Positions 8,501-61,075 of a stretch of DNA of 64,000 nucleotides are shown piece after piece. The stretch covers positions 299,842 through 363,841 of the forward strand of contig CAWDHY010000001.1 in the NCBI GenBank assembly GCA_963802255.1, given 5' to 3'. The translations under genes were made by a program, and so were the position numbers. The notes under the pieces were generated by a model. That model ran no database searches. It was not told the origin of the DNA and saw nothing but the letters and a program-made list of their open reading frames with translations. Source of the DNA: Candidatus Magasanikiibacteriota bacterium (GTDB lineage: Bacteria > Patescibacteriota > Patescibacteriia > Magasanikbacterales > GWA2-37-8). Within the stretch, counting starts at the first letter, position 1; every line of letters starts with the position of its first letter.

Positions 8501-11500
8501 AGGAACCGGTTCGTCAACTGTTAACAGTAAAAATTATCAAAAATCCGGAACCGGGAAATTTGAAATTATTTGCGGGTACAGCACGGATATTGAATGCCAA
8601 GATTTACTCGGCGACGAATACGGTTTAGCGAGCAATTCTTGCTGTATGCCGCGGCCGTGGCTTATCAGTACGTATCCGGATAAAAATGATATAAATCCGC
8701 CGTATGATATTTGTCCCAACACATATATTGAAGCTAAATTTAATCATCTTATAGATGAAAACACACTGATAAATCAAATATATGTTGCTCGAGGCTACAC
8801 AACTCCTTCTTGTCCAACCGGCACAGTTGATGTAACACCGTTTGTGTCTGATTATGAAATTTTGGTCATTGATAAAGGGCCTTGGTACAAGCGTTTATGG
8901 CACGGCATTGTTAATTGGTTTGCCAGAATTTTCGGCGACGAAACATCTGCCGCGCCGATTGAAATTACCGCCACAAAATATTGTTCCGAAGGAGTTCTTC
9001 CGCCGGCAAAAGTTGCAGTTGAGGGATCAATGTCCGGCGCTAATACCACTTCCAGCGTAATGATACGCTTAAACACTCCGCTTGCCACTAGCACTGATTA
9101 TGTGGTTATTTTCCGGCCTGGTGTTAAAGACGTGCGAGGGGTAAGTGTTGCCACTTCAACACAATGGAAATTTATTACCGGTCCGAAAATATGTGAGTTA
9201 AATCGGGTGGCAATTAACCCGGACAATTATATGTTTAACCGATCCGGCAGTTCAAGCAGTTTTGTTGCCAGTTCAAGCGCTATAAACGGGCAGTCAATTC
9301 AGCCGGTAGAAGGATACAGATGGGAATATGAATGGAGCCCGATGCAAAGCGATGTGGTATCGTTAACCAACACCACGGACACAATAAATATAGTGACCGC
9401 AAAAAATAGAAACGGTGAGCTGGATCTTCTGGCAACAGCGAAATTTACGGAAAATTGGTTTTTCTTTGATTCGCCGTCGTTATCCGGTAAATCACGTATA
9501 GTTGTATTTCTGTGCGAAAATCCATGGCCGTCTTCTTCAACCATAGATTTTCCGTTTAAAGAAATTGAATACGATTTCACCACATATTATTGTATGGACA
9601 AAGGCAGTCCGGGATTTGCTGATGACATGCCTTACGTAACTTCTTCACGTGTGTGGATACAGGAAACGAATCCTTTTAAAAAGCGATATTTATTTACGAA
9701 TTCCGATAATAAAGATGCCATTGGCATGCAGGTGTTTTATAATCCGGAACATTTGTCTGTTAGCGAGTGGTATACCGCTCAGGGTTTTCGCGGGAATATG
9801 AATTCACTAAAAATAGACGGCTATGACGCGATAAGCGATGGAAATAATTATTATGTTGATGCTTTAAGCTTTTCCAATGCCAATAATATCTATTCAAATA
9901 TTTATCAATTCAGTATTAACAATGACGCCACTAATGATGGTAAGGAGATATTTAAACAGATGATGGAGAACATTAAATTTAACAGCGGATTAATTAATGA
10001 TAAATATTGCGCTGTCGGTTATGGTCCAATGGATACCGTTCGCTATGATATGGCCTGTGAAAGCGATTTGGATTGCCTCGCTAACATGGAAGCGTTTAAA
10101 AAAGTTTATCCAACTTCAACTTTAAGTGCTTATAATTGTTTAAATCAAAAAGATAAGTTGCAAAGAAATTATCAGCGGTTGAAAGATATGAGACAGGCGG
10201 TTTCAATAATAAATTATGGCAGAGGAGCGATTGCTGTTTTGCCGATGGATAGTGTGAATTATGGAAAAACGCCGGATATCACAAAAAAGGGAAATGACCT
10301 GACGATCACCGATTCAAACGGAATATCACTGGTCGGTGGCGCTTTAAAACTATCCGGCTCCGGCCGTTTAGAAACAGAGGCGTCTATAGGATTAATGGTC
10401 GGCTCAAAATCATTTACCGTGACCGGTAAAATAAATACAGTATTGGATGAAGCTACTCGTTTAATGCGAATTACTAATAGTACCGGCGATGGTATGAGTT
10501 TGGAACTATCTAATGAAGGGAAAATGACTGTGTGTAATGGTCCAGAAGTCGGTACTATGTGTATATCGCCGGCTAGCTGTTCAACCATGCCGTCATTAAA
10601 CGATGGATCTTGGCATAATTTTGCATTAGATTTTACTCAGTCATCACCTGATAAAATAAGGGTTTATATTGATGGAGAATTGGCCTGCAGCAGCACCGGA
10701 TCATTCCCCAGCATGCCATCATCAGCTAAATTAGTAATTGGTGGCTATTCTAGTGACAATATATTTGATGGTTCTATTGATGATCTACGAATTTATACAC
10801 GTGATTTGTCCGAAGACGAAATATCCGCCTTATACGCAAATAATTTACCATATAAAGGCAGTTATCCGACAATAAACGAAAATACATATCTTAATGGGCA
10901 GGCAATTAGCGTCTGGGATAATTCTTGGACACAGCTTGGGACGGAAGCGGGTATGTCATTACCGATTGATCCGATAAACAGGCTGGTGCAAAGCGGCACC
11001 TGTTTCCAAAAGACCGGTATTTCTTACAGTGCGTGTTACAAAGATTCAGATTGCGCCGTTATACCGCAACTTAGTAATAGACAAAGTTATTGGTCGGCTG
11101 ATTATGAAACGACCGATGAAGGTGTTTTGAAAAATAATGCTGCCATTGAGGGTTCTGTAGATTATGGCGATGGCAAAGGGCACGGCAAGGCCTTTGAATT
11201 TTCCGGTGATTCAACAGCAAAAGTCATGGCAGCGCATAATAATGCATATAATAGCAGTCAATTCACTGTTTCCGCCTGGATTTATCCGACAAAAAAGAAT
11301 ACGGCCACAATTATTAAACATGGAGGTACGGATGGTAATGGCATTAGCCAGGGTGGTTTTGCTCTTGAATATAGCGGTTTTTGGACCGGTGTCGTCGGCT
11401 CAAGCGTTGTCACCAGATTTAATAATGGAACAGTCAGGTTTGCTTTTTTCACCACATCAACATCAGAGACTAAATATTATTCTTTGGATTCAAACGGCAC

Positions 11501-13778
11501 GCCTTTAACTCTTAATCAGTGGCACCATATTTTGGTAAGATTTGATGGCAATGGCACTGTCTATATGTATATTGATGGCGTCAACCAGAATACGCAAATG
11601 AGATTGCCAAATGGCGCGCTGTTCACGATTGACCCGGGTGATCCGTTTCCACAGATGGCTGCTAATACCGGTAATATTGAAATTGGTCAAAGTTTTAACG
11701 GCAAGATTGATAATGTGGCATTTTATGATTCTTTATTAATAAATTACGATCCAAATAATGAGGTGAACAATTTATACAAAGGGCTATGCATATTACACGA
11801 TCCAACTACTGGCTGGAGTGCTGAAGATCGCCGGTTTAGCTTTGCCTGCAATACCACTTCATACGCATATAGATATCAATACGCGAGTTCAACAGGTGCG
11901 TTTTTGCTGCGGGCTAATATGGAAAAATTCGCGAATATCTGGCCAGGCAATATGAACACGTTTAACAATGACTTCTTCGGCGGTTATGTGGATATATCAA
12001 CCGGAGTTTGTGCCGGAAATAATGAAATTTCTTCGCCGTACAATTTAGTCTGCGGAGACGGTGTGCTTGGCGGAACGGAGACATGCGACCCGCCGGGAAA
12101 AGTTGAAATAAATTCGTCTCTTTGTCCGGTTGGTCAGGCAATTAAGAAAACATGTTCTAGTAACTGTACCTGGGGAGCAACAACGAATATTAATTGTTAT
12201 TTGGCCACTGGTGGTTCTTGTGGAGACGGCAAATTGCAGACAGCAGCAGGTGAGAAATGCGATGATGGAGCGTTGAATGGCCAGAGCGGGCGGTGCGCAA
12301 CTGACTGCCAAGGCACTGTAAATACTTGCGGTAATGGGACTCTTGATGTAAGCGAGTTTTGCGACACTGTAACGGCCACGGGACAGTGCGAATTTATGCC
12401 AGGTGTAGAGCGAGAAATTGATCCGAAAGGCGAACCAATGTTTTATTTTTTGGTGGATTTGACTGGGACGATGGGGAGTGCTTTTCCCGGCGCTCCGTCC
12501 CCGGGGACAAGAGTAGCTATGGTAAAGTATTCACTGCCTCTTATTGCTGAACGTTTTAGTAATCCTGATTCGCGAGCTAAAATAGGAATCGGATCATATA
12601 ATTGCCCCGTTAATTCTTTTCATAATAAAGATTGGCTGCCAGGTACTAAGGGATATTTCACGTCTTCTCAAGTTCAGACAGCTATTTCGACCATGGTTCA
12701 GCAAACTGGACAAAATACCGACAGCGTTTTTGACTGGTTCAGGTATACAATTTTACCGATACTAAAAAGCGGAGTAGACGATGGCAAACCAATTAACCTT
12801 GTTTATATTACCGATGGAGGCAAAGCGGGATCGTGCACGCCTTATGGCGCTTTGTGTCCTACTGATAAAATTGCCGCTTTGTACAATGACTTAGGAGTTG
12901 TTACGCATATTATCGGAGTTGGTAATGTAGTGGAATGTGACCGTGAAATTATGGCAAACGCGGGACATGGACAATATCTTCAAATTACTGAGGGCGCTGA
13001 CTCATTAGCTGAGGCAATGATTGAAATATATAAAAAACCCTGCGAACAATATTCGCAGTATAACGGTTATTCCTGTCGTTGGGACTGTAAAGGACCTGGC
13101 GGATATTGTGGTGATGGAATTTTGCAATTTGAAAGTGGCGAGCAATGTGAAGCTGACCAGTCGTGTACAGTGTCTCCGGGCGGTGAATCTGGAATGCAGA
13201 AATGCGAAAGTTGCCAGTTGGGTGAGTGTGAAGCGATTGTTGAAGTTGAAGTTCCGGGACAGTGCGGGAATGATATTGTAGAGGAAGAAGAGGCCTGTGA
13301 TCGCGGTGATATGAATGGTGAGGCTTGTAATCCTTTATATCCGCAAAAGAAATGCACTTATTGTTCGTATGATTGCCGAAATGTAATTACTGTTGATAAT
13401 CTTTGTGGAAATGGTTTTCTGGACTCAGGAGAAGTGTGCGACCCTGAACATTGGTTAACCAATGGTTATAAACGTCAATATTTTATGGCTGATCATTGCG
13501 TACCGTGTAAAAATGATTGTTCGGGCTGGGATTATTCCATTGCCGAAGATAACACTCCGCAAAGTAATTGTGCGGATATTTGGGGATATTGCGGCAATGG
13601 CATAAAGGAATCGGTTTATTATGGGGAAATTTTGACGCCTTTTGAAAGTTGCGATGGAACCGATGGAGTAAATAATTGTCCTGAATGCTCGGAAACTTCC
13701 CCGGCTACTCCATTTAAGAAATGTAATTTTAATTGTTCATGTGGTTGTTCCGCTTTTATGCCTTTCTTTTCAATGTAA
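2586..13778 (+). CDS. giant (3730 aa) surface adhesin-like protein: T4SS-pilin-like N-module, poly-Gly linker, IPT/TIG repeats, three LamG/concanavalin-like domains, ~12 CGDG/EECD Cys-rich repeats, vWA domain
   Basis: Single uninterrupted ORF of 11.2 kb starting 10 nt after the previous stop. The N-module LGLPDTDIRVIAARIIRVALGFLGIIALVLILYAGFVWMTAGGNEENIQKAKRILMNAVIGLIIILSAYAIV is followed by G14. TIG-like motifs include SGQFFG, IGENFG, ITGKNFG. LamG signatures WNFDEGGTEITDISGNGHNG...DDLRIF, ...DDLRIY and KIDNVAFYD are present. Cys-rich repeats take the form CGNGTVEPLLGEECD. A vWA/MIDAS-like FYFLVDLTGTMGS...ITDGG is present. Confidence 0.7.
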   Translation: MMQKLNWKKLLLVTLFLAGIGVFLLAAVSLAQTNVPDLGLEPVGQELGLPDTDIRVIAARIIRVALGFLGIIALVLILYAGFVWMTAGGNEENIQKAKRILMNAVIGLIIILSAYAIVSFVLSSLLSATTGGDGGGGGGGGGGGGFSKVFYITSMPGNDFGCGARNLHPVIRFNKPVDLTTIENNLVLRKKIDASPANGEWVFQVVNSVPITSAVVFNPVGDCGIEGHNDCLDANSTYQIFFANATNIKSQSPDILNLNCNVGDYKNQCKNDPSVEFATGDGVDVENPTITIINPFDGQSFGQGQSVSVEVIFTDNFGLQDLALFINSSSVPVDTASITGCQKSGTSTLVWPTGSSPTGTYALTALATDFAANYSTDIRNISLVPLHCFDSLLNFGETIAGPPACGDGCGNCSGEPCTQNSDCASGWCEDGICIDKIRINLFDPLDGAASSTYVTISGQFFGDDGGHVYFTKQGGGWTEAFIVSCGAGIDNWTPYQLVVKVPPNADDGPIKVAHASAPSDGSDDITRRYTDITDDTSWGYYKNFNVNDVIKPGLCALIPSYGPPYSSTTLIGENFGATNNSAQDKVMFSSSTALIRDWASRTVTARVPALGTGPVAVKILNEGEESNAVRFDVRESLDNDTPVIESINPEDGAKGEYITITGKNFGNNVGKVLFKFEGEGEAKYGSFDFPADCEGSTWSNNQIIVKFPEDEPVVVDHDYSVQIQRSSDAKIGPIGAYFQLHSGNPAPGICKLSPSSGPVPFNPSSSMKIYGEYYQRGGSTSTPYFWQLEASTTTIEDRVEATDIIQESDQQAELRPPEDSQTGPVVMHRASENKTGNSLPFTVYNCVENNNICYSPGTRCCTSGADAGACKLEFDLCAGQTRSTGYMWRFSTGPFPPVPKVMERCDAGTDAGENLPSPSPDIRWTGLGNFDHFNACRTSLVNIEFTMKMDPATINATNVQIFKCVSSSVTTTFANDINTCTHDGAALIMADGSYELDTGSGGEFGDTSFMQMIPSALRWADNTWYQVVLKKGVKSLPSQYEYKGEIKTLPAQNLTTNNPCGTDTAYCFIFKTDTRDCKLNKVVVTPYTYWTSILESPIKYRTIKSNADDLGSTLYYKGNGLSDQHCIMMDMRSFNWSWDTQRPPYSMIYGTSTLQKSQATALANTVAVGLADPENAVMIRATASRGGIGSSVEPPLVDPTLFPMAGWWNFDEGGTEITDISGNGHNGVIQGPATFVPGKIGSAIYLNGSGNYVPLESPLSLPGGLSSRTMCAWGKPDDISGGWRWMMAYGRGASGQAMFIGMNGTSLDGGAYGGGYDIIVNDFWSAGVWRHICLTYNGSVARLYADGSEIGHLNVGWNLQLQKAYIGAQVHSSANEFWKGAIDDLRIFDYALSQEEIVALYEYGNSGGILGGGGSVEYEEKMGQSPLTIDLSRPKVVDYWPKCLEACTNAEIGAKFNVIMANANIENAVKLVRCLDENCASTVPVGEISKIIDSADRRYIKLNFGILGGELATDTVYAVTLSTTGTSTAISNYQLWSGASATDEYAKAKPMQEEFIWRFKTKKEKCVLDKVNIIPALFQAVFINDRHVYSSEARSAPDACDPKGQKLDTWTIDWDWSSSASDVATVQEFKTKGRSPVCNNNCVRKGSDITSDALTFEPLCGNASVEAGEDCDPPFISVVGSVTTTACTLNCLRPGNEFTATCGNGTVEPLLGEECDPADDATKVGCSKNCLHIGSVAATGAEDVTASICGNGKIGMGEECDLGMAVDYTKSTSSLYCSPYCLHLGTSLSSGWCANNTSTLFGQVEYLSACAKSKSQCGDGIRDPSEDPGCDCGEGNVPNSSHMCVCNGVMISANDLDQCLKVNPACSAKCLGNSRLLAECNPLSTTTVGGITVVRATEGCGDNSQYQGSSLMYSVPSLCGDGIVGIGEENDCESGFLFTHSLTDPWTLATGVGLGAVVTSSSGIPSQVTNIQGTGSSTVNSKNYQKSGTGKFEIICGYSTDIECQDLLGDEYGLASNSCCMPRPWLISTYPDKNDINPPYDICPNTYIEAKFNHLIDENTLINQIYVARGYTTPSCPTGTVDVTPFVSDYEILVIDKGPWYKRLWHGIVNWFARIFGDETSAAPIEITATKYCSEGVLPPAKVAVEGSMSGANTTSSVMIRLNTPLATSTDYVVIFRPGVKDVRGVSVATSTQWKFITGPKICELNRVAINPDNYMFNRSGSSSSFVASSSAINGQSIQPVEGYRWEYEWSPMQSDVVSLTNTTDTINIVTAKNRNGELDLLATAKFTENWFFFDSPSLSGKSRIVVFLCENPWPSSSTIDFPFKEIEYDFTTYYCMDKGSPGFADDMPYVTSSRVWIQETNPFKKRYLFTNSDNKDAIGMQVFYNPEHLSVSEWYTAQGFRGNMNSLKIDGYDAISDGNNYYVDALSFSNANNIYSNIYQFSINNDATNDGKEIFKQMMENIKFNSGLINDKYCAVGYGPMDTVRYDMACESDLDCLANMEAFKKVYPTSTLSAYNCLNQKDKLQRNYQRLKDMRQAVSIINYGRGAIAVLPMDSVNYGKTPDITKKGNDLTITDSNGISLVGGALKLSGSGRLETEASIGLMVGSKSFTVTGKINTVLDEATRLMRITNSTGDGMSLELSNEGKMTVCNGPEVGTMCISPASCSTMPSLNDGSWHNFALDFTQSSPDKIRVYIDGELACSSTGSFPSMPSSAKLVIGGYSSDNIFDGSIDDLRIYTRDLSEDEISALYANNLPYKGSYPTINENTYLNGQAISVWDNSWTQLGTEAGMSLPIDPINRLVQSGTCFQKTGISYSACYKDSDCAVIPQLSNRQSYWSADYETTDEGVLKNNAAIEGSVDYGDGKGHGKAFEFSGDSTAKVMAAHNNAYNSSQFTVSAWIYPTKKNTATIIKHGGTDGNGISQGGFALEYSGFWTGVVGSSVVTRFNNGTVRFAFFTTSTSETKYYSLDSNGTPLTLNQWHHILVRFDGNGTVYMYIDGVNQNTQMRLPNGALFTIDPGDPFPQMAANTGNIEIGQSFNGKIDNVAFYDSLLINYDPNNEVNNLYKGLCILHDPTTGWSAEDRRFSFACNTTSYAYRYQYASSTGAFLLRANMEKFANIWPGNMNTFNNDFFGGYVDISTGVCAGNNEISSPYNLVCGDGVLGGTETCDPPGKVEINSSLCPVGQAIKKTCSSNCTWGATTNINCYLATGGSCGDGKLQTAAGEKCDDGALNGQSGRCATDCQGTVNTCGNGTLDVSEFCDTVTATGQCEFMPGVEREIDPKGEPMFYFLVDLTGTMGSAFPGAPSPGTRVAMVKYSLPLIAERFSNPDSRAKIGIGSYNCPVNSFHNKDWLPGTKGYFTSSQVQTAISTMVQQTGQNTDSVFDWFRYTILPILKSGVDDGKPINLVYITDGGKAGSCTPYGALCPTDKIAALYNDLGVVTHIIGVGNVVECDREIMANAGHGQYLQITEGADSLAEAMIEIYKKPCEQYSQYNGYSCRWDCKGPGGYCGDGILQFESGEQCEADQSCTVSPGGESGMQKCESCQLGECEAIVEVEVPGQCGNDIVEEEEACDRGDMNGEACNPLYPQKKCTYCSYDCRNVITVDNLCGNGFLDSGEVCDPEHWLTNGYKRQYFMADHCVPCKNDCSGWDYSIAEDNTPQSNCADIWGYCGNGIKESVYYGEILTPFESCDGTDGVNNCPECSETSPATPFKKCNFNCSCGCSAFMPFFSM
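2978..3020 (+). repeat. (GGC/GGA/GGT)n simple repeat encoding a 14-residue poly-Gly linker
   Basis: ggcggtgatggcggcggcggaggcggtggcggcggcggcggagga read directly. The protein reads GGDGGGGGGGGGGGGG. Confidence 0.6.
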
Positions 13779-29498: not shown

Positions 29499-29541
29499 TG
29501 CTTGACTGTCAGCCACTTATAATGTAAGATTTTTCGGAATT

Positions 29542-29615
29542 GCACGCCTAGCTCAGCTGGTTAGAGCACCTCGTTTACACCGAGGGGGTCAGGGGTTCGA
29601 ATCCCTTGGCGTGCA
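29542..29615 (+). tRNA. tRNA-Val (anticodon TAC)
   Basis: gcacgcc acceptor arm, agctcagctggttagagc D-arm, anticodon loop tTTACAc, T-arm ggggttcgaatccc, 3' ggcgtgc + a. No encoded CCA. Confidence 0.85.
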
Positions 29616-29746
29616 CTTAATGCGATCCAATTGTTTGGATCGCAAGTGGATTCGAACGCCGGAGCGATGTTTGGCGAGTTAGAGGACGAGCCAAACCGCG
29701 AGGCGGTGGCCAGGCAAAATTTTTGGAAGAAAATTTTAGCCGAGGC

Positions 29747-29765
29747 CGAATCCCTTGGCGTGCAC
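29747..29765 (+). repeat. 19-bp exact direct copy of the tRNA-Val 3' end (cgaatcccttggcgtgcac)
   Basis: Identical to 29598-29616 inside the tRNA. A 130-bp spacer between them contains the 9-bp-stem hairpin gcgatccaattgtttggatcgc (29622-29643). Confidence 0.7.
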
Positions 29766-29767
29766 AT

Positions 29768-30961
29768 ATGACTTCTTGGTTCCAAGACGCGATTATTTAT
29801 CAAATTTTTATTGACCGGTTCTCCAGAGGCAAGCTTGAAGACGAGAAACCGTCAAAATGCAAGGCTCTGTCTTTTTGTGGCGGAAATCTCATCGGTGTTA
29901 TTGAGCGTCTTGATTATTTGAAAGACCTTGGCATTAACACTATTTGGCTTAGTCCGTTCAATGCGACAAGCGAATATCACGGTTATCACATTACCGATTT
30001 TTTTGCTATTGATCACCGTTTTGGCTCTTTATTGATATTAAAAAAATTAATTGATGAGGCGCATAGAAGGAGTATTAAAATTTTAATGGATTTTGTGCCA
30101 AACCACATGTCAAGCTTTCATCCGTATTTTTTGGACGCTCAGAAAAACAAGGATAGTCAATATAGAAATTGGTTTCATTTTACTAAATGGCCGGATCAAT
30201 ACCTGTGTTTTTTAAAAGTTCGTGAATTGCCTAAAATAAATTTGGATTTTGAGCCGGCAAGAGATCACATCGTCAATTCCGCAAAATATTGGTTAAGCCA
30301 AGGAATAGACGGTTTCAGATTGGATCATGTTGTCGGCCCAAAGCATTTGTTTTGGAAATTTTTTAGAAGTGAAATCAAGAAAGAATATCCCGAAGCGGTT
30401 CTGATTGGAGAAGCTTGGATTTCCGGTGTGAAATTTACGGACCTCAAAACAATTCAGATAAAAGGAAAATTTACTAAATGGTTATCCGGGTCAATTTCTG
30501 ATGCTTTGTTAAAGGAATATATTGGTGAGTTGGATGGTGTGCTTGATTTTGAATTTCAGAAATTAATGAAACAGTATATTGCCAAGCCGTCGTTTTTTCG
30601 GCCACGCTGGTTACTCCAATGGAAACTAAAGCGTCATTACAAAAAATATCCAGCTGACTATTTTTTGCCTACATTTTTGGATAATCATGACATGAACAGG
30701 TTTCTTTTTGAAACAGGCCAAGATAAAAATAAACTGAAGGAAGCTACCAAGATACAGTTTGCGCAAAAACAGCCACCCATTATTTATTATGGAACCGAAG
30801 TAGGTCTAACACAACAATTCGACGTATCTTCACTTAAGGAACATGGTGATATCATGGCTCGCGCAATGATGAATTGGAGCGAATATGAACAAGATAATGA
30901 GTTATATTTATTTTATAAAGAACTCATACTACAAAGGCGGTCGCAAAGAATAAAGAACTAG
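29768..30961 (+). CDS. alpha-amylase family (GH13) glycoside hydrolase
   Basis: IYQIFIDRFS, GGNLIGVIERLDYLKDLGINTIWLSPF, DFVPNHMS, GFRLDHV (nucleophile Asp), IGEAW (acid/base). The ORF is open from a TTG at 29723; the ATG at 29768 is preferred. Confidence 0.85.
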   Translation: MTSWFQDAIIYQIFIDRFSRGKLEDEKPSKCKALSFCGGNLIGVIERLDYLKDLGINTIWLSPFNATSEYHGYHITDFFAIDHRFGSLLILKKLIDEAHRRSIKILMDFVPNHMSSFHPYFLDAQKNKDSQYRNWFHFTKWPDQYLCFLKVRELPKINLDFEPARDHIVNSAKYWLSQGIDGFRLDHVVGPKHLFWKFFRSEIKKEYPEAVLIGEAWISGVKFTDLKTIQIKGKFTKWLSGSISDALLKEYIGELDGVLDFEFQKLMKQYIAKPSFFRPRWLLQWKLKRHYKKYPADYFLPTFLDNHDMNRFLFETGQDKNKLKEATKIQFAQKQPPIIYYGTEVGLTQQFDVSSLKEHGDIMARAMMNWSEYEQDNELYLFYKELILQRRSQRIKN

Positions 30962-31086
30962 CCGATAAAAATTAACACTCAATATTCACCTCACGGGCTT
31001 GACAAAGGGCCTTTTTTGTGTTAATCTTGCTAGTTAAAATTTTATTTCTTTAACTGTTCTTTAAAAATCATGAAAAAGGAGGTTGA

Positions 31087-31959
31087 ATGACTGCGTTAAC
31101 AGTTATAACCCGGTCTTTTCAGGCCGGAACAGGTGGACAAGGAAAGAATTTCGATCCGGTTCTGTTTGCCAACAAGGTGGCGCGTCCGCTCAGAAACATC
31201 TTGCGGTTTTCCGAAGTGGTCCGGGCGGTTGTCGTCGTGACTAATGGGGACCCCAAAAGTCCTATGGCTGAGAATGCGGAAGACGGAGTGACGCCGACCA
31301 TAGCGGCACTTAGGGAAACATTCCCCAATGAAATCACTGGCGGTTCTCTCATCCCGCTGACTTGCGAGAATTGGGGTAGAAACCCCGGTAGCGGAAATGC
31401 CCTTAACGACGGCATTCGTATCGCCGAGGAGCGTTATCCCGGCAATTTTGTGATGATGTGGTCGCCGGAAATCGATGTGGATGGATTCTCAATATCTCAG
31501 GCGCTCAATTTCATCGAGCGTAGGAATCTGGCAGTAGCCGGATTTCTCCGTGAACGCTGGTGGGAAAGACCGCAATGGAACGTCGTTCAGAATACCGCCG
31601 CCATTTGGAATTCAGAAGTCCTTCTTGGCGTGGGTGGCTTCGCCCCGGAATGCAATGGCATCGGCAGGACCGTTAGAACCGAGGAATTTGGCGAGGTTCC
31701 GCTGGCCGGTATGGAGGATTTCCACGCCTGCTTAAGAATCATGAAAGCCAATGGCAATTTCCGTTGGGGGATGATTGGCAGGGCTGTTCCTCTGCGCTGG
31801 GATGTTGAATTTGATCCGGGAAGCGAGAGGGAGAGAAACCACATGACCAAGGTTGCGAGACAGTTCCTGGTTATGCGGGAATATGCGCGCAATATTTTTC
31901 CTTTGATGGATTTTAGCGAGGTCATGAACCGTCTGTTTGCCCTGTATCATCAGGAATAG
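31087..31959 (+). CDS. hypothetical protein, compositionally foreign (GC ~55% against ~40% background)
   Basis: Strong RBS aaggagg 7 nt upstream. Codon usage is GC3-rich. The protein is Trp/Arg-rich (ERWWERPQWNVV). No motif recognised. Confidence 0.5.
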   Translation: MTALTVITRSFQAGTGGQGKNFDPVLFANKVARPLRNILRFSEVVRAVVVVTNGDPKSPMAENAEDGVTPTIAALRETFPNEITGGSLIPLTCENWGRNPGSGNALNDGIRIAEERYPGNFVMMWSPEIDVDGFSISQALNFIERRNLAVAGFLRERWWERPQWNVVQNTAAIWNSEVLLGVGGFAPECNGIGRTVRTEEFGEVPLAGMEDFHACLRIMKANGNFRWGMIGRAVPLRWDVEFDPGSERERNHMTKVARQFLVMREYARNIFPLMDFSEVMNRLFALYHQE

Positions 31960-31964
31960 GGCTG

Positions 31965-32032
31965 ACAGATGAAAGCACATTTTATCAGCCCCTTGCGGTA
32001 TAATTACATATCGCCGGGGGCTTTTTTTTTGA
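31965..32032 (+). terminator. hairpin(s) plus T9 tract after the GC-rich gene
   Basis: ggctgacagatgaaagcacattttatcagcc ... gccccttgcgg...ccgggggcttttttttt. Confidence 0.5.
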
Positions 32033-32134
32033 CAATTGCGGTAAATAGTTTTAGCCGCGAGAATAAAAGTATTGCTTGGTCGTACACACAATGATTTATG
32101 CAAATAATATGCTATAATATGTCCATATAAAAAT

Positions 32135-33307
32135 ATGATGAAAATAGATCAGCCGGTTGTTTTGCACAAAGGAGTATTCAAAAAAACCGCCACTACCAGT
32201 GAAGCGGTATTCATGATTACCGGAATGACCATTGGCGCCGGGATTTTGGGTTTGCCATACGTTATTGCCCGTTCAGGGCTTGTTATGGGGCTCATTTTAA
32301 TCGCCCTGTGGGGTTTGGTGATGCTTCTCCTCAATCTTATGCTTGGCGATATTGCAGTGCGTACAAAGCGCAATTTTCAGCTTCCGGGTTTTGCCGGTAA
32401 ATACCTGGGAAATTGGGCGAGACGTCTGCTTGGAGCAATTATCGTTTTCAGCGGTTTTGGTACACTGCTCGCATACATTATCGGCGAAGGGCAGACACTT
32501 GCGGAAATATTCGGCGGAACGCCTTTTTGGTGGAGCGTATTTTTTTGGTCCTTGGGAAGTTTTTTCATCTGGCAAGGTTTGCAGACAATAAAAACCATTG
32601 ACCGTGTTCTGAGTTTAACGGTCATTATTTTAATAATTGCTTTGTCAATGTTTTTATTGCCAAAAATAAATATTGAGTATGTGCAATATTCAAATTTGGC
32701 TAACTTCTTTTTACCTTTCGGTGTGATATTGTTTGCTATGCATGCAACTCCGGCCATTGCCGAAGCTCACGCGCTTTTGCCCGGGTCGGAGAAAAGATTT
32801 AAAAAGGCGATAATAATCGGTACGTTAATTCCGATCGCGGCATATTTTATTTTTGCTTTAGCCGTAGTCGGGTATTTTGGTATTACTACGACCGAGGTAG
32901 CGACGATCGGCCTTGGCCGGGCGTTTGGCCCCGGTTTGGTTATTATGGCCAATGCGTTTGCCGCGCTTGCGATGGGTACTTGTTTTATGGGAATAGGGCT
33001 GGCGTTGAAACAAACTTTTATCTGGGACCATAAAATTAGCCCTCACTTGGCGGAATTCACTGTAATCGTTGTCCCTTTACTTTTGTTTTTGTTTGGTTTC
33101 AGAAGTTTTGTGGAAGTGCTGGATGTTGTTGGCGGATTATTTATCGGATTGGAAGCTCTTTTTATTGTGTTGATTTGTTATATGGCGCGAAAAAAAGGGG
33201 ATCTGGACGGATCGCGCTATGGATTAAAGAATTTTTGGCTAGTAGCCGTTCCGGTTTTAATGTTTTTTTTAGCGGCAACAGTTTATTCGGTGATTAAGAT
33301 GTTTTAG
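32135..33307 (+). CDS. amino acid permease (Trp/Tyr-permease / amino acid transporter-like)
   Basis: About 11 TM segments. The N-terminal TATTSEAVFMITGMTIGAGILGLPYVIARSG is typical of the aromatic amino acid / HAAAP permease family. Confidence 0.6.
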   Translation: MMKIDQPVVLHKGVFKKTATTSEAVFMITGMTIGAGILGLPYVIARSGLVMGLILIALWGLVMLLLNLMLGDIAVRTKRNFQLPGFAGKYLGNWARRLLGAIIVFSGFGTLLAYIIGEGQTLAEIFGGTPFWWSVFFWSLGSFFIWQGLQTIKTIDRVLSLTVIILIIALSMFLLPKINIEYVQYSNLANFFLPFGVILFAMHATPAIAEAHALLPGSEKRFKKAIIIGTLIPIAAYFIFALAVVGYFGITTTEVATIGLGRAFGPGLVIMANAFAALAMGTCFMGIGLALKQTFIWDHKISPHLAEFTVIVVPLLLFLFGFRSFVEVLDVVGGLFIGLEALFIVLICYMARKKGDLDGSRYGLKNFWLVAVPVLMFFLAATVYSVIKMF

Positions 33308-38098: not shown

Positions 38099-41000
38099 AT
38101 GCGCAACAGAGTAGGGTATATATTATTCATTATGTACAACGTTATCAAGAGAGCTTTCACTTTCAGCGTTGTTGCCACGACCATGATGTGGTCGGTCGGC
38201 GTTGCAGCTTTGATCCCGTCTGTGGCTCAGGGCGCGACTTGTCCGACATTGGCATCTGGTGACATGATTAAAGTGGTCGGCAAAGCCGCCATTTATTCTG
38301 TCAACAACGATTTGAAAGTTTTATATTTCCCTTCCGGTGACGAATTCAAGTCATGGAGACCGACCTATGGTGGTTATATTTCCATCGATCAGGCCTGTTT
38401 CGATTCCTTGAGCGTTCCGTCAACCTATCCGGGTGGCGTGAACTATCACCCAGGTTCTTATCTCGTAAAGCGTCCGTCTTCCGACCAGCTTTATGTTGTC
38501 CTTCCAGGCAACAGCTTGTCAAAGATTGACACAACTGTGGCAAACACTCTTTACGGCACATCCGCCTTTACCGACGGTGTTGGCGCAAAAGTGATGACTG
38601 TCGCAGATACTTTCTGGCCGCATTATGTTTATCGCGGTGCAGATATTTCTACCGTTAAAGCGCATCCGGGCATGCTGGTCAAAGTGAGCGGCATTACCTA
38701 TTTGATTGATGCGGATAGCAAATTGCGCGAGGTTACAACCACTGGTTTTACCGCCAATGGTTTCCAGGAGAGATTCGTGCGCACTGTTACAACTGATGCA
38801 ATTTCCGGTTTAGCCACTGGCGACACCATTAATGCAGAAGTTCCGTCTTTGACCGATAAAACTCAAAGCGGCGGTGTGGTTATCCCGAGTTCATCCGGTA
38901 ATGTGACTGTGGCCTTGGCCGCTTCCACTCCGGGCGCAACTGATATCCCGGTAAACGCTTCCGTTGAATTCTTAAAGCTTACTGTTACCAACACAGGCTC
39001 AACTGATGCCAGCATGACTGGTATCAAATTCTCAGCCTATGGTTTGGGTAATGCTTCTGATATCGACGAAGTAAGCGTATACAACAATAATCAACGCTAT
39101 GGCAATGCCAAAGATGTTGATTCCAATAAGCAAGCTCAAATCAACTTCACAACGGCTATGCCGTTGGCAAAAGGTGCTACTGAGACATTGGTTATTAAAG
39201 CCAAAGTTACAGGTACCGGTCATTATGCTTTGGGTGTGGCCGCTGCGGCCGACATCATGGGCGTGACTGCTGCCGGCAGTTATCCGATTGTGGGTAACAC
39301 CATGAGTGGCGTTAATGTTGCAGTTGGTCAGCTTACTATCGATAACAATGGCACTTTGGCTTCTGTTAATCTCGGAGACATGGCTGCCACTGTTGCCAAA
39401 TTCAAAGTCACCAATGATAATGTGGAAGATGTTTCTTTGAAGAGCATCACTTTAAAGCGTGATTCTGCCAGCACTGCTAATGACAGCGCGCTGGAGAACA
39501 TGAAACTTTATGTTGATGGTACCGAAGTTGCTTCCGCCCCTGCCATTGTTGGCAAGTATGTTTCCTTCACTTTGTATTCTCCTTTCACCATCCTTAAAAG
39601 TGGTGTGAAGAGTTTCACTGTGAAAGGTGATGTGGTTGATGGAGCTGGTAAAATAATCAGATTGATTCTTGATGCCAATTCCGATGTTTCAGCCATTGGC
39701 TCACATTATGGTTTTTCATCCATCATAGTCAATAACATGACCGGTGCTAATTTATCTATCAATGCCGGTACTGTGACTGTGGAAAAACTTAATGCTGCCA
39801 ATACAAAATTGGTTATTAATACCAATGATGTAGAAATGGGTACCCTTAAAATCACCGCTAACAGTGGTAAGACTGTTGAGCTCTCAAAGACGAGACTCAC
39901 AATCGACTCTGTGAACGATGACAATATCGGTGCTGATTTAGCATTTGCTGAAATCGAGAACTTGAAACTCTTTGACAAATACAACAACACCACTTATGAC
40001 CTGACTTATGTTGCAGGCTCAGATACTGGTGCCGCTAAGGTGTATCAGAATACTGATAGTATCACCTTGGCAAGCGGTGTCACCCACGAACTCGTGGTAC
40101 GCGCCAATGTCAAAGCCGCTCCAACAGCGAATAACGGTGATTACACTGTAAAAATCGCTGATGCCGCCGGTGGTGACTTGGTCTTAAAAGAGACAGGTGA
40201 CGACACTACTATCACTGACATTACTCCGAATTCTGTGTCGTTAAACAAAGTTTCTATTGAAAGCGCAACTGTGACTTTCTCCAAGAATGCTTTGTCTGCC
40301 GCTTATACCGCTGTTGTTGGTTCAACCAACCACACATTGCTAAGCTTCAACGCAAAAGCCGGTCAAGCCAGTCAAGTTAAGATGACTGAAATTAAATTTA
40401 AGGATCAGGTGGCGGATAATAATCCGACCGTTGGTGGCGTCCAAGTAGTGGACAAAAACATGGTTTCAGAGTTCAAGCTCTATAAGGGCGGGAACCTCAT
40501 CAGAACTGTGTCTGCCAACCAGATGGCCAGCGAAGAAATCGCCTTTACTGATCTCTCTGAATTTATTGACCCGAATGCGACTGCGTCTTATATACTTCAG
40601 ACCACATTGGTTAATGATTCCAACAATGATACCGCTACCATGCAATTCTACATTAGCGGCTATTCTGTTGAGGAGACCAATAAAGGTACTGCGGTTTATG
40701 ACGCTGTTGCTGAAAATGTACTCGCGAACGGTATTATTGCCGCTGGTGAGACTGGTTACACTTCATTGTTATCAGCTCGCGTTGTTACCATAGTTGGTTT
40801 TGGTTCATTAAATGTCTCGGTTGATAATACTGTCAACCTGACAAAATATGATACCTATCAACTTGGTGGTTCTACCGATATTCCGGTCGCTTCCTTCAAG
40901 TTGCGCGCCGCGAATGAAGAGGTGAAGGTTACTTCATTAAAAGTTGGCGTCTCTGTTGCCGATATTTCGAGCAGCATCAGCAAGCTAGCTCTTTATGAAG

Positions 41001-41839
41001 AGGGCATTACTTCTCCGGTTGCCTATGCAACCAATATTGGAGCCACTGAAGTCATCTTGGAACAGGACTTTATTGTCCCGTCAGTTGAAAAGGTCTATAC
41101 CTTGAAGGCTGACTTTACCAAGATTGGTCAGAATGAACCGGGCATTTTGGATGTGGACACAACGTTCCATATTAAAGATGTCGCAGCAGAAGGTGTCAGT
41201 TCCGGCGCCACTTTGGTTGTCGGTGACATTGACGCTGCTGTTGAAGCTGGTGAAATCTGTTATGAAGGTGATAACTCCGCCACAACTAATGTGTCTAAAT
41301 TAACAGGTATCGTCGCTTCAAAGATGAGCCCGGTTAGCTTGGTCACCTCTTACGGCGGTCAATCACTTGCCACCTCAATATCTACCGGTATCTCTGCCAA
41401 CGCGGCAATTATTGCTGTAACCGTTCCGGCTACAAGCAACAATAACGCCGACGGTACAGCTCTTAAACTGTCAATCGGAAGAGTACAGGTGGGAGTTGAG
41501 CACAATCTGACCTCGTTTACCGCAACCATCGAAAGAATTGGCGGTAGCGCTGGTACAGTAAACGGAACCGGTTTAGCAACATATGCCAGATTCAATACAG
41601 CTGGAAATGTCGATTTCGCATTGAACCCAGGCGAGACTGCTTACTACCTGGTCAAGGTTGTCCCGACATTTACCACGGTCGTTGCTGGCGACACCAGTCT
41701 TAGAGTCGGTCTTGATGACCTGAACAATGTGTCACTCCACAACTTCCGCTGGCTTGATCGCGCGGATGACATAACGAACAATTTAGAGGTTCGTATGCCA
41801 GGTATCAGCTCAATCACTGGATCCCAGATTACTAACTAA
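38099..41839 (+). CDS. large (1246 aa) secreted beta-rich repeat protein (S-layer/adhesin-like)
   Basis: Signal-peptide-like FTFSVVATTMMWSVGVAALIPSVAQGA (start possibly the ATG at 38132). Thr/Val/Asn-rich Ig-like repeated segments. It lies downstream of the ECF / anti-sigma pair. Confidence 0.5.
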   Translation: MRNRVGYILFIMYNVIKRAFTFSVVATTMMWSVGVAALIPSVAQGATCPTLASGDMIKVVGKAAIYSVNNDLKVLYFPSGDEFKSWRPTYGGYISIDQACFDSLSVPSTYPGGVNYHPGSYLVKRPSSDQLYVVLPGNSLSKIDTTVANTLYGTSAFTDGVGAKVMTVADTFWPHYVYRGADISTVKAHPGMLVKVSGITYLIDADSKLREVTTTGFTANGFQERFVRTVTTDAISGLATGDTINAEVPSLTDKTQSGGVVIPSSSGNVTVALAASTPGATDIPVNASVEFLKLTVTNTGSTDASMTGIKFSAYGLGNASDIDEVSVYNNNQRYGNAKDVDSNKQAQINFTTAMPLAKGATETLVIKAKVTGTGHYALGVAAAADIMGVTAAGSYPIVGNTMSGVNVAVGQLTIDNNGTLASVNLGDMAATVAKFKVTNDNVEDVSLKSITLKRDSASTANDSALENMKLYVDGTEVASAPAIVGKYVSFTLYSPFTILKSGVKSFTVKGDVVDGAGKIIRLILDANSDVSAIGSHYGFSSIIVNNMTGANLSINAGTVTVEKLNAANTKLVINTNDVEMGTLKITANSGKTVELSKTRLTIDSVNDDNIGADLAFAEIENLKLFDKYNNTTYDLTYVAGSDTGAAKVYQNTDSITLASGVTHELVVRANVKAAPTANNGDYTVKIADAAGGDLVLKETGDDTTITDITPNSVSLNKVSIESATVTFSKNALSAAYTAVVGSTNHTLLSFNAKAGQASQVKMTEIKFKDQVADNNPTVGGVQVVDKNMVSEFKLYKGGNLIRTVSANQMASEEIAFTDLSEFIDPNATASYILQTTLVNDSNNDTATMQFYISGYSVEETNKGTAVYDAVAENVLANGIIAAGETGYTSLLSARVVTIVGFGSLNVSVDNTVNLTKYDTYQLGGSTDIPVASFKLRAANEEVKVTSLKVGVSVADISSSISKLALYEEGITSPVAYATNIGATEVILEQDFIVPSVEKVYTLKADFTKIGQNEPGILDVDTTFHIKDVAAEGVSSGATLVVGDIDAAVEAGEICYEGDNSATTNVSKLTGIVASKMSPVSLVTSYGGQSLATSISTGISANAAIIAVTVPATSNNNADGTALKLSIGRVQVGVEHNLTSFTATIERIGGSAGTVNGTGLATYARFNTAGNVDFALNPGETAYYLVKVVPTFTTVVAGDTSLRVGLDDLNNVSLHNFRWLDRADDITNNLEVRMPGISSITGSQITN

Positions 41840-46271: not shown

Positions 46272-46577
46272 TCAGCATTGTTTGACTTTATAAGACTCAT
46301 TTTCCACTGGCGGTGCCAATTTTTCAGCTGTTTTTCTCTGCTGATCGCGTGCTTTGGTTCTGTAAAAGTTTCGTAGTAAACTAGCTTTTCTTAGATTATA
46401 TCTTTTTGTGAATCCTTCATTTATTCCATTTTTGTGTTCCCAGATTCGTCGTTCCAGATTATTGGTTATTCCGACGTACAGTGTTGTATTGGTGAAATTT
46501 GTAAGTATGTACACGTAGAAAGTATTCCTCCCCATAATTGATAGATGCTGAAACAAGTTCAGCATGACATGGCGCAA
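46272..46577 (-). CDS. GIY-YIG nuclease domain protein (small, UPF0213-like)
   Basis: FYVYILTNFTNTTLYVGITNNLERRIWEHKNG. The likely start is the ATG at 46565, inside hairpin copy B3. Confidence 0.75.
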   Translation of the reverse strand: MRHVMLNLFQHLSIMGRNTFYVYILTNFTNTTLYVGITNNLERRIWEHKNGINEGFTKRYNLRKASLLRNFYRTKARDQQRKTAEKLAPPVENESYKVKQC

Positions 46578-47945: not shown

Positions 47946-48551
47946 ATGAATTTCCTACAGCTTGTTTTCTATTTTTTCATTATTATCCCTTCAGCCATTA
48001 TTCACGAATATGCCCATGGCTGGATGGCAGACAGATTGGGTGATCCGACCGCGCGTTATGCCGGCCGGCTGACTTTAGATCCAAGAGCCCATATTGATAT
48101 TTGGGGTACTATTTTGATGCCTTTGATGTTATTTGCTTTATCCAATGGCACCTTCTTATTTGCCTATGCCAAGCCGGTACCGTATAACCCGTATAATTTA
48201 AAAAATCATAAATGGGGGCCGGCTTTAGTGGCGCTCGCCGGACCGATGGCGAATCTGCTTTTAGCTGTTGCTTTTGCCGCAGTTATCCGTATTTTTCCAA
48301 CGGTTCCGGCAGTGGATTTTTTCTACATCATCGTTTATGCCAATGTTCTTCTTTTAGTATTTAATTTAGTGCCGATTCCGCCGCTTGACGGTTCAAAAAT
48401 TTTGTACGCAATATTGCCTGACTCGGCACGCGGAGTGCGTGATTTTTTGGAACGTTACAGTTTTATTTTGCTCATGATTTTTATTTTCTTTTTGTTTGAG
48501 TTGATTGTGCCGGTAATACAATGGGTTATGAAATTATTAATTGGAATTTAA
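47946..48551 (+). CDS. peptidase M50 (site-2 protease) family protein
   Basis: IIHEYAHGWMADRLGD (HExxH) and NLVPIPPLDGSKIL (LDG motif). The ORF is open from 47871 only because it translates an upstream hairpin. Confidence 0.75.
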   Translation: MNFLQLVFYFFIIIPSAIIHEYAHGWMADRLGDPTARYAGRLTLDPRAHIDIWGTILMPLMLFALSNGTFLFAYAKPVPYNPYNLKNHKWGPALVALAGPMANLLLAVAFAAVIRIFPTVPAVDFFYIIVYANVLLLVFNLVPIPPLDGSKILYAILPDSARGVRDFLERYSFILLMIFIFFLFELIVPVIQWVMKLLIGI

Positions 48552-48571
48552 TATTTAATTTATTTCATTTT

Positions 48572-48919
48572 ATGAAATTACTTCTACGATGGTTGGTTAG
48601 TGCGGCGGCGTTGATGCTCATCGCCATGTATGTGCCGGGTATTGGCATTGCAAATTTTTATAGCGCGCTTATTGCCGCTTTAATTTTTGGTTTGATCAAC
48701 GCGCTGATAAGGCCCCTTGCCTTGCTTCTTACGTTACCGGTGAATATTTTGACGCTCGGATTGTTTACGTTGGTAATCAACGCGGCGATGTTCTGGCTTG
48801 CTTCAACAATTGTAAAAGGGTTTTATGTATCGGGTTTTTGGCCGGCTTTCTGGGGTGCTCTCATTATGTGGCTGGTGGCCTGGTTCACGAACATGGTGTT
48901 GAAGAATAAAGCGTATTAA
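48572..48919 (+). CDS. small 4-TM membrane protein, phage-holin-4_2 (PF04020)-like
   Basis: MKLLLRWLVSAAALMLIAMYVPGIGIANFYSALIAALIFGLINALIRPLALLLTLPVNILTLGLFTLVINAAMFWLAS. Confidence 0.55.
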   Translation: MKLLLRWLVSAAALMLIAMYVPGIGIANFYSALIAALIFGLINALIRPLALLLTLPVNILTLGLFTLVINAAMFWLASTIVKGFYVSGFWPAFWGALIMWLVAWFTNMVLKNKAY

Positions 48920-60729: not shown

Positions 60730-61075
60730 AGTGGCAAAATCGATTATTGAATTTTTTAAGGACAAGAAAAATGTTTTATATATCGCCAAATTATTGAAAA
60801 ATGGAGTAGCTATCGGAAGGCAGAAAGTTGAAAAAAGAGAACACGGTAAACTTGCCGGTCAAACTTTTGTCTTGACCGGGACGCTCGATTCAATGAGCAG
60901 AGATGAGGCAAGAGAAAAAATTAAAACTCTCGGCGGAGAGGTGAGCGGGTCGGTCAGTAAAAATACATCAGCGGTTGTCGCCGGTGCAGAGCCGGGAGGT
61001 AAATATATAAATGCGAAAAAGCTCGGCGTGAAAATATTGGCTGAAAAAGAATTTTTAGAAATGATAAAAGAATGA
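60683..61075 (+). CDS. ligA: C-terminal fragment of ligA (HhH tail + BRCT) in the +1 frame
   Basis: ...YMINGVGDKVAKSIIEFF then BRCT GQTFVLTGTLDSMSRDEAREKIKTLGGEVSGSVSKNTSAVVAG. The meaningful part begins at about 60707. Confidence 0.8.
   Translation: MHLRNSCYMINGVGDKVAKSIIEFFKDKKNVLYIAKLLKNGVAIGRQKVEKREHGKLAGQTFVLTGTLDSMSRDEAREKIKTLGGEVSGSVSKNTSAVVAGAEPGGKYINAKKLGVKILAEKEFLEMIKE

Follow-up and report, generated by a model that had tools for sequence, protein, structure and literature searches.

A candidate att-type recombination hotspot 3' of tRNA-Val(TAC) in a Magasanikbacteria genome, with a gene-less mini-element and an amylase and glycosyltransferase islet

The region 3' of the tRNA-Val(TAC) gene was analysed in a 64,000-nucleotide (nt) stretch of contig CAWDHY010000001.1 (positions 299,842 to 363,841) from a Candidatus Magasanikiibacteriota bacterium, referred to here as the window. 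The last 19 nt of this tRNA gene recur exactly beyond a 130-nt spacer, and a block of about 2.4 kb that carries an alpha-amylase-family gene and a second gene (gene 2) starts at the first base of the recurring sequence. We propose that the DNA 3' of the tRNA is an attachment-site (att)-type recombination hotspot, holding a mini-element without an integrase and an accreted islet of cargo genes, and we give this reading a probability of about one half. The features on which the argument turns, numbered from the first letter of the window, are as follows.

29502–29530, + strand: promoter-like site TTGACT-17-TAAGAT, 5' of tRNA-Val
29542–29616, + strand: tRNA-Val(TAC) (ARAGORN; Rfam tRNA, 67.5 bits)
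29598–29616, + strand: copy 1 of the 19-mer CGAATCCCTTGGCGTGCAC, the final 19 nt of tRNA-Val
29747–29765, + strand: copy 2 of the 19-mer CGAATCCCTTGGCGTGCAC, an exact 19/19 match to copy 1

The tRNA has the acceptor stem GCACGCC/GGCGTGC and no encoded CCA. It is identical in the relative L175 and matches at 74/75 positions in L001, a Candidatus Magasanikbacteria metagenome-assembled genome (MAG; CAWJAS010000001.1) that is the closest genome in the species-representative collection. TTGACT and TAAGATT of the promoter-like site are kept in L001, and no other such site was found between the upstream glycoside hydrolase (GH) gene and the amylase. Copy 1 comprises CGAAT of the T-loop, the 3' strands of the T-stem and acceptor stem, the discriminator A and a C. 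A preliminary description of this DNA had recorded the repeat, its spacing and the position of copy 2 immediately before the amylase start, and all were confirmed: the spacer is exactly 130 nt (29617–29746), and 2 nt separate copy 2 from the amylase ATG at 29768. With up to three mismatches allowed, the 19-mer has just two matches in the window against 0.01 expected from shuffled sequence, and none of 100 shuffles contained two. Across 1.24 Mb of compared locus sequence no additional copy of the 19-mer was found, nor of the conserved spacer blocks A–C described below or the L001 spacer. A dispersed repeat or miniature inverted-repeat transposable element was rejected on these grounds, and the objection that the repeat is a generic one fails likewise.

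The repeat begins midway through the T-loop, at GGTT|CGAAT, and extends to the end of the tRNA. It measures 22 nt in L175 (including AAT) and matches at 17/19 positions in L001. Upstream of copy 2, similarity to the tRNA breaks at one and the same nucleotide in the window and L175 (...AGCCGAGGC|CGAAT) and in L001 (...CATCCCGTGA|CGAAT), and the sequences preceding this point are unrelated between the two. A simple tandem duplication of the tRNA 3' end, which the preliminary description had offered as one origin, does not fit a similarity that, in two contexts unrelated to each other, halts at an identical nucleotide.

The clearest mobile DNA at the locus is on the right of copy 2; the preliminary description had placed the element between the copies only. 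The relevant features are:

29747–32155 (~2.4 kb), no strand assigned: transferred block of high nucleotide identity to L001
29768–30961, + strand: GH13 alpha-amylase-family gene, 397 amino acids (aa), ATG 2 nt 3' of copy 2
31087–31959, + strand: gene 2, a GT-A-fold glycosyltransferase (GT) by predicted structure
32135–33307, + strand: amino-acid permease, a backbone gene whose first ~7 codons lie within the transferred block

Identity to L001 steps up at the first base of copy 2 (29747), the left edge of the block, and stays at 87–100% per 100 bp (mean ~96%) up to about 32155, where it drops abruptly to the 51–76% of the backbone some 20 bp into the permease open reading frame (ORF). Genes upstream of the tRNA show ~52–72% nucleotide identity to L001. 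At the protein level the amylase is 95% and gene 2 98% identical, compared with 75% for the backbone GT4, 54% for FolD, 41% for EamA, 66% for the GH, 74% for the permease and ~52% for the 581-aa protein. Four-fold degenerate sites are 86% (amylase) and 95% (gene 2) identical, against 29–41%, that is, saturation, in backbone genes; the intergenic stretch between amylase and gene 2 is identical at 125/125 positions. Such identity at four-fold and intergenic sites beside a saturated backbone is not explained by purifying selection, which was rejected as its cause, and indicates a recent horizontal exchange between distantly related Magasanikbacteria, with its left edge at copy 2.

Backbone relatives were located both via gene 2 and via the GH gene that abuts the tRNA. 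They share the order radical-SAM, methyltransferase, GT4, FolD, EamA, GH, tRNA-Val, ..., permease, 580-aa protein, helix-turn-helix (HTH) protein and sigma factor, and differ between tRNA-Val and the permease. In L161 (~72% backbone identity) the tRNA is followed by a hairpin with a T-run terminator, a promoter and gene 2; spacer, copy 2 and amylase are missing. L173 (~78%) has the tRNA, the first spacer hairpin (H1), GGGGATTCGAACGCCGGAGCGATGCCAA, a second hairpin with a T-run and the permease promoter, without copy 2, amylase or gene 2. In L175 (~68%) the tRNA is followed by a homologous 150-nt spacer, an exact copy 2, 11 nt, a terminator with a 13-bp stem and the permease promoter, again without amylase and gene 2. 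L176, an independent Logan (short-read) assembly, has the same sequence as L175 across the region, so the layout of tRNA, spacer and copy 2 is not an assembly artefact. Amylase and gene 2 follow copy 2 in the window and in L001, which shares the whole layout (tRNA-Val, spacer, second tRNA-end copy, 2 nt, amylase ATG) although its backbone is the most distant (~62%; 41–75% at the aa level). The closer relatives lack either the amylase (L161) or both cargo genes (L173 and L175). DNA bounded by or abutting the repeat is thus missing at the same site in L161, L173 and L175, with synteny otherwise intact. The locus is polymorphic for presence and absence rather than fixed in a single arrangement, and since the 19-mer is also not generic, neither of the two findings that the preliminary description had named as fatal to its att-site reading, a generic repeat or one identical arrangement in all relatives, was observed.

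An att-type origin of copy 2 is suggested by the extent of the repeat, from mid-T-loop to tRNA end, by the shared breakpoint behind two unrelated upstream sequences, by the variable content on both of its sides among syntenic genomes, and by the start of the recently transferred block at its first base. The amylase in turn appears foreign to the locus, because no other amylase homologue examined is tRNA-linked: in 159 further amylase loci, not one had a tRNA upstream of the gene. The idea that tRNA fragments generally accompany this amylase family was rejected on the same count. In addition, the L001 tRNA and its flank match the window's copy 2 and its flank across 23 nt (CGAATCCCTTGGCGTGCACATAT), which suggests that in the ancestral state or donor the amylase may have followed tRNA-Val directly (GTGCACATATG), with no spacer.

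Under the hotspot reading, copy 2 would be an att-type junction. Site-specific recombination in the T-loop, between GGTT and CGAAT, would first have inserted foreign DNA, rebuilding the tRNA at the left junction and leaving a 19–22-bp copy of its 3' end at the right one. The remnant of that insert would be a gene-less, att-flanked mini-element (~130 bp here, ~150 bp in L175) resembling a cis-mobilizable element (CIME). This mini-element would be the older part, common to L175, partly deleted in L173 and missing from L161. The amylase and GT islet would have accreted later at copy 2, the attR-type end, and been exchanged recently between lineages. We infer both this order of events and a recombinase that acted in trans or has since been lost. 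The att-like interpretation given in the preliminary description thus finds partial support, in the junction behaviour of the repeat and the polymorphism of the locus; the action of an integrase is putative, none having been found.

Several observations weigh against this reading. No integrase, recombinase or transposase Pfam domain, and no excisionase paired with an integrase, was found in the ORFs scanned across the window (the 3730-aa ORF left out), in agreement with the earlier remark that no integrase is visible nearby, and none of the listed Pfam annotations of called genes in the flanks of L161, L173 and L175 is a recombinase domain. On its right the block ends within the permease ORF, which suggests homologous or illegitimate recombination there rather than an att site, and no convincing right-hand repeat was found for the islet of amylase and gene 2. 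A candidate third copy right of the islet (CTTGGTCGTACACA, 32075–32088) was rejected, since it is equalled by 3–12% of background windows and missing in L001. L161 has gene 2 at this very position, with no repeats and as diverged as the backbone, and the islet may therefore be ancestral in part. The spacer's invariant blocks and covarying stems are unlike neutral att-arm debris and point to an extra function, perhaps as RNA. The hairpin directly 3' of the tRNA, H1, is similar to the terminator that natively follows the tRNA in L161; were H1 native, the insert would not adjoin copy 1, unlike a classical attL. H1 may instead belong to the insert, since the L161 hairpin is nearer to the second hairpin of L173. 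Finally, copy 2 is carried by three genomes only, and no intact parent element of the module was found in 1.24 Mb of locus sequence or in an exact-motif scan of IMG/VR with blocks A–C. The missing recombinase and right-hand repeat, the edge in the permease, gene 2 in L161 and the ambiguity of H1 are what hold our estimate at one half.

The spacer has the following parts.

29622–29643, + strand: hairpin H1 (GCGATCCAA TTGT TTGGATCGC), 9–10-bp stem, 4-nt loop, no T-run after it
29644–29669, + strand: conserved block A, AAGTGGATTCG (the inverted T-arm-like motif; 5' strand of closing stem P1) then AACGCCGGAGCGATG
29669–29696, + strand: hairpin H2 (GTTTGGC ... GCCAAAC), 100% paired
29697–29715, + strand: conserved block B, CGCGAGGCGGTGGCCAGGC, 3' strands of P3 and P2 and 5' strand of P4
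29716–29737, + strand: AT-rich hairpin H3 (AAAATTTT TGGAAG AAAATTTT), variable, only TGGAAG common to L175
29738–29765, + strand: conserved block C, AGCCGAGGC plus copy 2, 28/28 identical to L175

Both the hairpin at 29622–29643 and the inverted T-arm-like segment (GGATTCGAACGCC, 29648–29660) that had been pointed out before are present. The 130 bp, flanked by the two copies, contain no ORF. Block A (GGATTCGAACGCCGGAGCGATG) is identical at 22/22 positions across the window, L175/L176 and L173. Block B (CGCGAGGYGGTGGCCAGGC) is 18/19 identical to L175, and its one change preserves a pair, as G-U, in P2. H2 differs from its L175 counterpart (GTCGTGC/GCACGAC) by three consecutive double, compensatory changes. 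H1 belongs to a family of terminator-type hairpins, GCGAnnnAA-TAGT-TTnnnTCGC, in which all cells are paired in six sequences and four of nine pairs are changed on both sides. Folded separately, the window and L175 spacers adopt the same predicted architecture. H1 comes first. A closing stem forms between (A)AGKGGAUUC of block A and GAAUCCCUU of copy 2, and both independent minimum free energy (MFE) folds, like the consensus fold, have block A paired to the 5' half of copy 2. The H2-bearing branch is closed by CGCC/GGYG and GCG/CGC and holds one additional hairpin in L175, another branch is closed by GGCC/GGCC, and GGCGUGCAC is left as a free 3' tail, the 3' half of block C (GGCGTGCAC) being predicted single-stranded. 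The MFE values are -66.7 (window) and -86.0 kcal/mol (L175), with z = -5.6 and -4.9, and none of 200 shuffles was as stable. An RNAalifold consensus, for which two to three sequences were available, keeps the module helices. The L001 spacer is only 82 nt long and unalignable with the 130 nt of the window, yet structured (z = -4.3); its UGUUCGCC pairs with GGCGUACA of copy 2 in an acceptor-stem-like manner.

These comparisons indicate that the spacer is a conserved, folded module and neither random debris nor the simple decayed scar envisaged in the preliminary description: it is conserved in L175, with invariant blocks, covarying hairpins and a fold beyond that of shuffles. Rfam scans (E-value) of the window, L175 and L001 matched the tRNA alone and nothing in the spacer, so that a known RNA family was rejected. 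A resemblance to transfer-messenger RNA or signal recognition particle RNA was dismissed, having neither ARAGORN nor Rfam support, as was a T-box or riboswitch for the amylase, because L175 has the module without any downstream gene. An attP from a phage or provirus was rejected as well: exact-motif scans of IMG/VR gave no match to block A and two to block B, the latter chance matches in GC-rich coding sequence.

H1-type hairpins recur at the tRNA and permease edges of the variable region (window 32038–32058, L173 5121–5141 and L161 5882–5902). The former is:

32038–32058, + strand: hairpin of the H1 family, closest to the L173 terminator hairpin T2

T2 lies 5' of the permease promoter in L173. 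Two such hairpins flank inserted DNA in both L173 and the window, and the pair might be a duplication of the original tRNA terminator upon insertion.

An unlikely alternative is that spacer and copy 2 are primarily a functional 3' trailer RNA, one that shares the tRNA-Val transcript and is set free when the tRNA 3' end is processed. The anti-T-arm motif would pair with the tRNA mimic in copy 2 to close the multi-branch fold and leave GGCGUGCAC as a free tail, and the amylase block would have landed just past the end of the RNA gene; an integrative origin of the module is compatible with this. The like, independently derived and unusually stable folds of the window and L175 favour such an RNA, as do blocks A, B and C, which stay constant while stems change by compensation (H2, the H1 family and the G-C to G-U change in P2) at a divergence where backbone intergenic DNA cannot be aligned. 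So do the canonical terminator 11 nt after copy 2 in L175, with none between the tRNA and the module, and the G-U pairs, which are tolerated on the + (tRNA-sense) strand only. The covariation statistics are weak, however, with two full-length examples and a truncated L173, and the H2 value is reached by 65 of 500 shuffles. Copy 2 in L001 follows a wholly different, though structured, spacer; the module appears dispensable, because L161 lacks it and L173 has lost its 3' half; and no Rfam family matches.

We consider it quite improbable that the tRNA-Val transcript of Magasanikbacteria yields a functional RNA not described before, the module (130–170 nt), which would either mimic the tRNA end or serve as a decoy, or work like a guide RNA. 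In the modelled fold a conserved three-way core would present an exact copy of the last 19 nt of the tRNA, the first ~10 held in a stem and the last 9 in the free tail. A mimic might be a decoy for tRNA-processing or tRNA-binding factors, and a guide might mark the T-loop site for a recombinase or nuclease encoded in trans. If it were guide-like, foreign DNA could be joined precisely at the tRNA-Val sequence without an integrase in cis. The att and mimic models alike predict that copy 2 should read CGAATCCCTTAACACCCAC in genomes that have the GGGTGTT-type tRNA-Val and an intact module.

Tandem decay is likewise a rather doubtful explanation. Here two or three copies of tRNA-Val would once have been present, copy 2 being the surviving 3' end of one of them and later a short homology anchor for import of the amylase block. 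Weak collinear resemblances to a tRNA are found in GAACGCC at 29653–29659 (6/7 of the acceptor 5' strand), GTTAGAGGAC at 29678–29687 (9/10 of the D-arm) and CCGAGG at 29739–29744 (3' strand of the anticodon stem); GTTCGCC of L001 pairs with GGCGTAC of copy 2 as in an acceptor stem, and an extra partial 5' copy of tRNA-Val in L175 and L172, located at the gene or upstream of it, shows that tRNA fragments accumulate here. Against this, ARAGORN and Rfam find no second tRNA or pseudo-tRNA, the collinear motifs occur in the window only and the D-arm likeness is missing in L175. The abrupt end at one T-loop nucleotide in two contexts is not expected from gradual decay, and an exact 19/19 match (28/28 with block C) beside total loss would require selection or gene conversion.

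Recombination without any site-specific recombinase, that is, homology-facilitated illegitimate or homologous recombination after DNA uptake, is in our view quite unlikely. The 19–23-bp tRNA-end sequence would be the left anchor and gene 2 or the permease the right one, and the repeat would be the product of an illegitimate join or of a template switch at the T-arm, which is palindromic. The tract of high identity does end inside the permease ORF, where conserved coding sequence starts, gene 2 is already at the locus in L161, and the 23-nt match to L001 is compatible with a donor that had the amylase directly after its tRNA. The failure to find a recombinase and the direct-inverted-direct order of T-arm sequences, a pattern that template switching can yield, agree with it too. 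However, the backbone divergence (~30% of nucleotides, synonymous sites saturated) is too high for efficient homologous recombination and 19–23 bp is at or under the usual minimum, random joins would not hit a single T-loop nucleotide twice, behind upstream sequences that differ, and the conserved structured module is left unexplained. A chance repeat or an assembly artefact is scarcely credible: these genomes are MAGs, and the relatives' short-read contigs break at the locus, but 0.01 matches are expected by chance, the arrangement is seen in three lineages and in independent assemblies (L175 and L176), and a shared block that is 96%, not 100%, identical is no chimeric join.

Returning to the genes of the islet, the amylase start is backed by an in-frame TGA upstream in L001 and by the N-termini of homologues. 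It has no Shine-Dalgarno sequence, and copy 2, which lacks a -10 box itself, sits where homologues have theirs. Distant homologues have a TAAAAT-like -10 box 6–10 nt 5' of the ATG and look leaderless (L168 ~695–712, L169 ~4975–5000, L170 ~715–736). Transcription from the tRNA-Val promoter probably continues into the amylase, so that the folded module would serve the gene as 5' leader, because no terminator lies between the promoter-like site and the gene (H1 has no T-run); we infer co-transcription of tRNA and amylase on this basis. The closest other homologues (63–73%) are found on unplaced bacterial contigs in unrelated contexts with ordinary upstream regions. Beyond these, the amylases are mainly archaeal (Woesearchaeota, Thermoplasmata) and deltaproteobacterial (50–60%), which suggests inter-domain transfer in the deeper history of the gene. 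An exact look-up of the protein as called here returned no record, and JGI metagenomes held no close relative (best 60%).

For gene 2, searches of Pfam, NCBIfam and PHROG gave no match. Its family comprises 63 clusters, mainly from Patescibacteria and unannotated, with a weak GT2 match in three members, and occupies several unrelated genomic contexts (L164, L165). The AlphaFold model (predicted local distance difference test score, pLDDT, 94; predicted TM-score, pTM, 0.91) matches the GT-A glycosyltransferases hyaluronan synthase, RmlT, TarS, TarP and EXTL2. Gene 2 is accordingly predicted to be cargo, a GT-A glycosyltransferase, and a cryptic recombinase was rejected.

The tRNA-Val gene itself is variable. 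Two acceptor-stem alleles occur whose distribution does not match backbone similarity: GCACGCC in the window, L001, L174 (7th base A) and L175, and GGGTGTT in L161, L172 and L173. L172 and L173, the nearest relatives of the window, thus have the GGGTGTT allele instead of GCACGCC, and the tRNA gene may have been exchanged together with its flanks. A partial 5' copy of tRNA-Val lies at 7023–7180 in L175 (GCACGCTTAGCTCAGCTGGTTA) and at 6621–6655 in L172 (GGGTGTTTAGCTCAGTTGGTTA), and a GC-rich hairpin (CCCGCCCG...CGGGCGGGG) breaks each of them after the GGTTA of the D-loop. A decayed stretch resembling an anticodon arm comes next in L175, then a promoter-like site and the intact tRNA. The two copies belong to different tRNA alleles and yet are broken at one and the same position, which suggests a second point of site-specific insertion on the tRNA's 5' side. 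Short-read contigs end within the tRNA-Val locus in L172 (at 6655) and L174 (at 7127), consistent with population heterogeneity or assembly-breaking repeats at the hotspot.

Elsewhere in the window, an ORF with an excisionase-family HTH (HTH_17, TIGR01764; 35188–35571, - strand) was considered as a mobile part and rejected: it is conserved in L161 and L175 and is therefore taken for a backbone regulator. It adjoins a sigma-70/DUF5667 pair. The NAD-dependent DNA ligase is split into two overlapping ORFs, the body at 59038–60729 and the BRCT domain at 60683–61075, for which a frameshift, an error in sequencing or a truly split ligA could account. Further ORFs do not adjoin the tRNA locus: the 3730-aa ORF (2586–13778), a 1246-aa ORF without a Pfam match (38099–41839), a small ORF with a GIY-YIG nuclease domain (46272–46577, - strand) and a holin-family ORF (Phage_holin_4_2; 48521–48919).

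Gene acquisition in Patescibacteria (the candidate phyla radiation, CPR), with their tiny genomes, is poorly known, and this locus would be a concrete and datable example, in which two genes, one for an amylase that degrades starch or glycogen and one for a glycosyltransferase, recently moved between lineages otherwise saturated with substitutions. If integrase-less, att-flanked modules of this kind are general, the hotspot could guide searches for cargo in CPR genomes. If instead the module is a functional RNA, it would represent a new tRNA-linked class in which a mimic of the neighbouring gene's 3' end is built in.

Structured RNAs directly 3' of a tRNA and in the same transcription unit are known as tRNA 3' external-transcribed-spacer (3'ETS) RNAs, for example 3'ETS-leuZ of E. 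coli. The structured module of L175 is similarly placed between tRNA and terminator; we know of no 3'ETS RNA that carries a copy of its own tRNA 3' end or an anti-T-arm motif. A documented parallel is offered by the ssrA-specific islands of Dehalococcoides (McMurdie et al. 2011, PMC3146451), tandem arrays delimited by the gene and its repeats, in which downstream cargo varies between strains, some units have no integration module and metabolic cargo moves between strains. The present locus likewise has variable cargo 3' of a tRNA, here tRNA-Val, that was transferred between genomes. It differs in that no DsiB-like serine recombinase or tyrosine recombinase was found nearby, the inter-repeat unit is gene-less and only 130–150 bp long, the islet has a repeat on its left only and its right edge within a backbone gene, and the host belongs to the Patescibacteria, with a genome of ~0.6–0.8 Mb. 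CIMEs have lost their int genes and kept attL and attR, and newcomers integrate at attR (Pavlovic 2004; Bellanger 2011; PMC5704250). The 130-bp spacer similarly keeps flanking att-type repeats without genes for integration or transfer. Known CIMEs, however, are kilobases long and demonstrably derived from integrative and conjugative or integrative and mobilizable elements, whereas the present module is far smaller, shows RNA-like structural conservation and has no known parent element.

A further likeness is to CRISPR-associated transposons, whose delocalized homing CRISPR RNAs target sites beside tRNA genes (PMC11656645). The module also offers a tRNA-matching 3' end on an RNA-like scaffold 3' of a tRNA, with the match starting after GGTT. 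This is a resemblance only, unlike such transposons or TnpB/IscB systems in that no effector or transposition genes (Cas12k, TnsB/TnsC/TniQ, TnpB and IscB domains were sought in the same scan of window ORFs), Tn7-like ends or CRISPR repeat were found. GGTT presumably resembles the protospacer-adjacent motif of Cas12k. On present evidence the locus is a variant of the well-known theme of tRNA-linked integration, with integrase-less tandem units in a patescibacterial host, and calls for no new principle.

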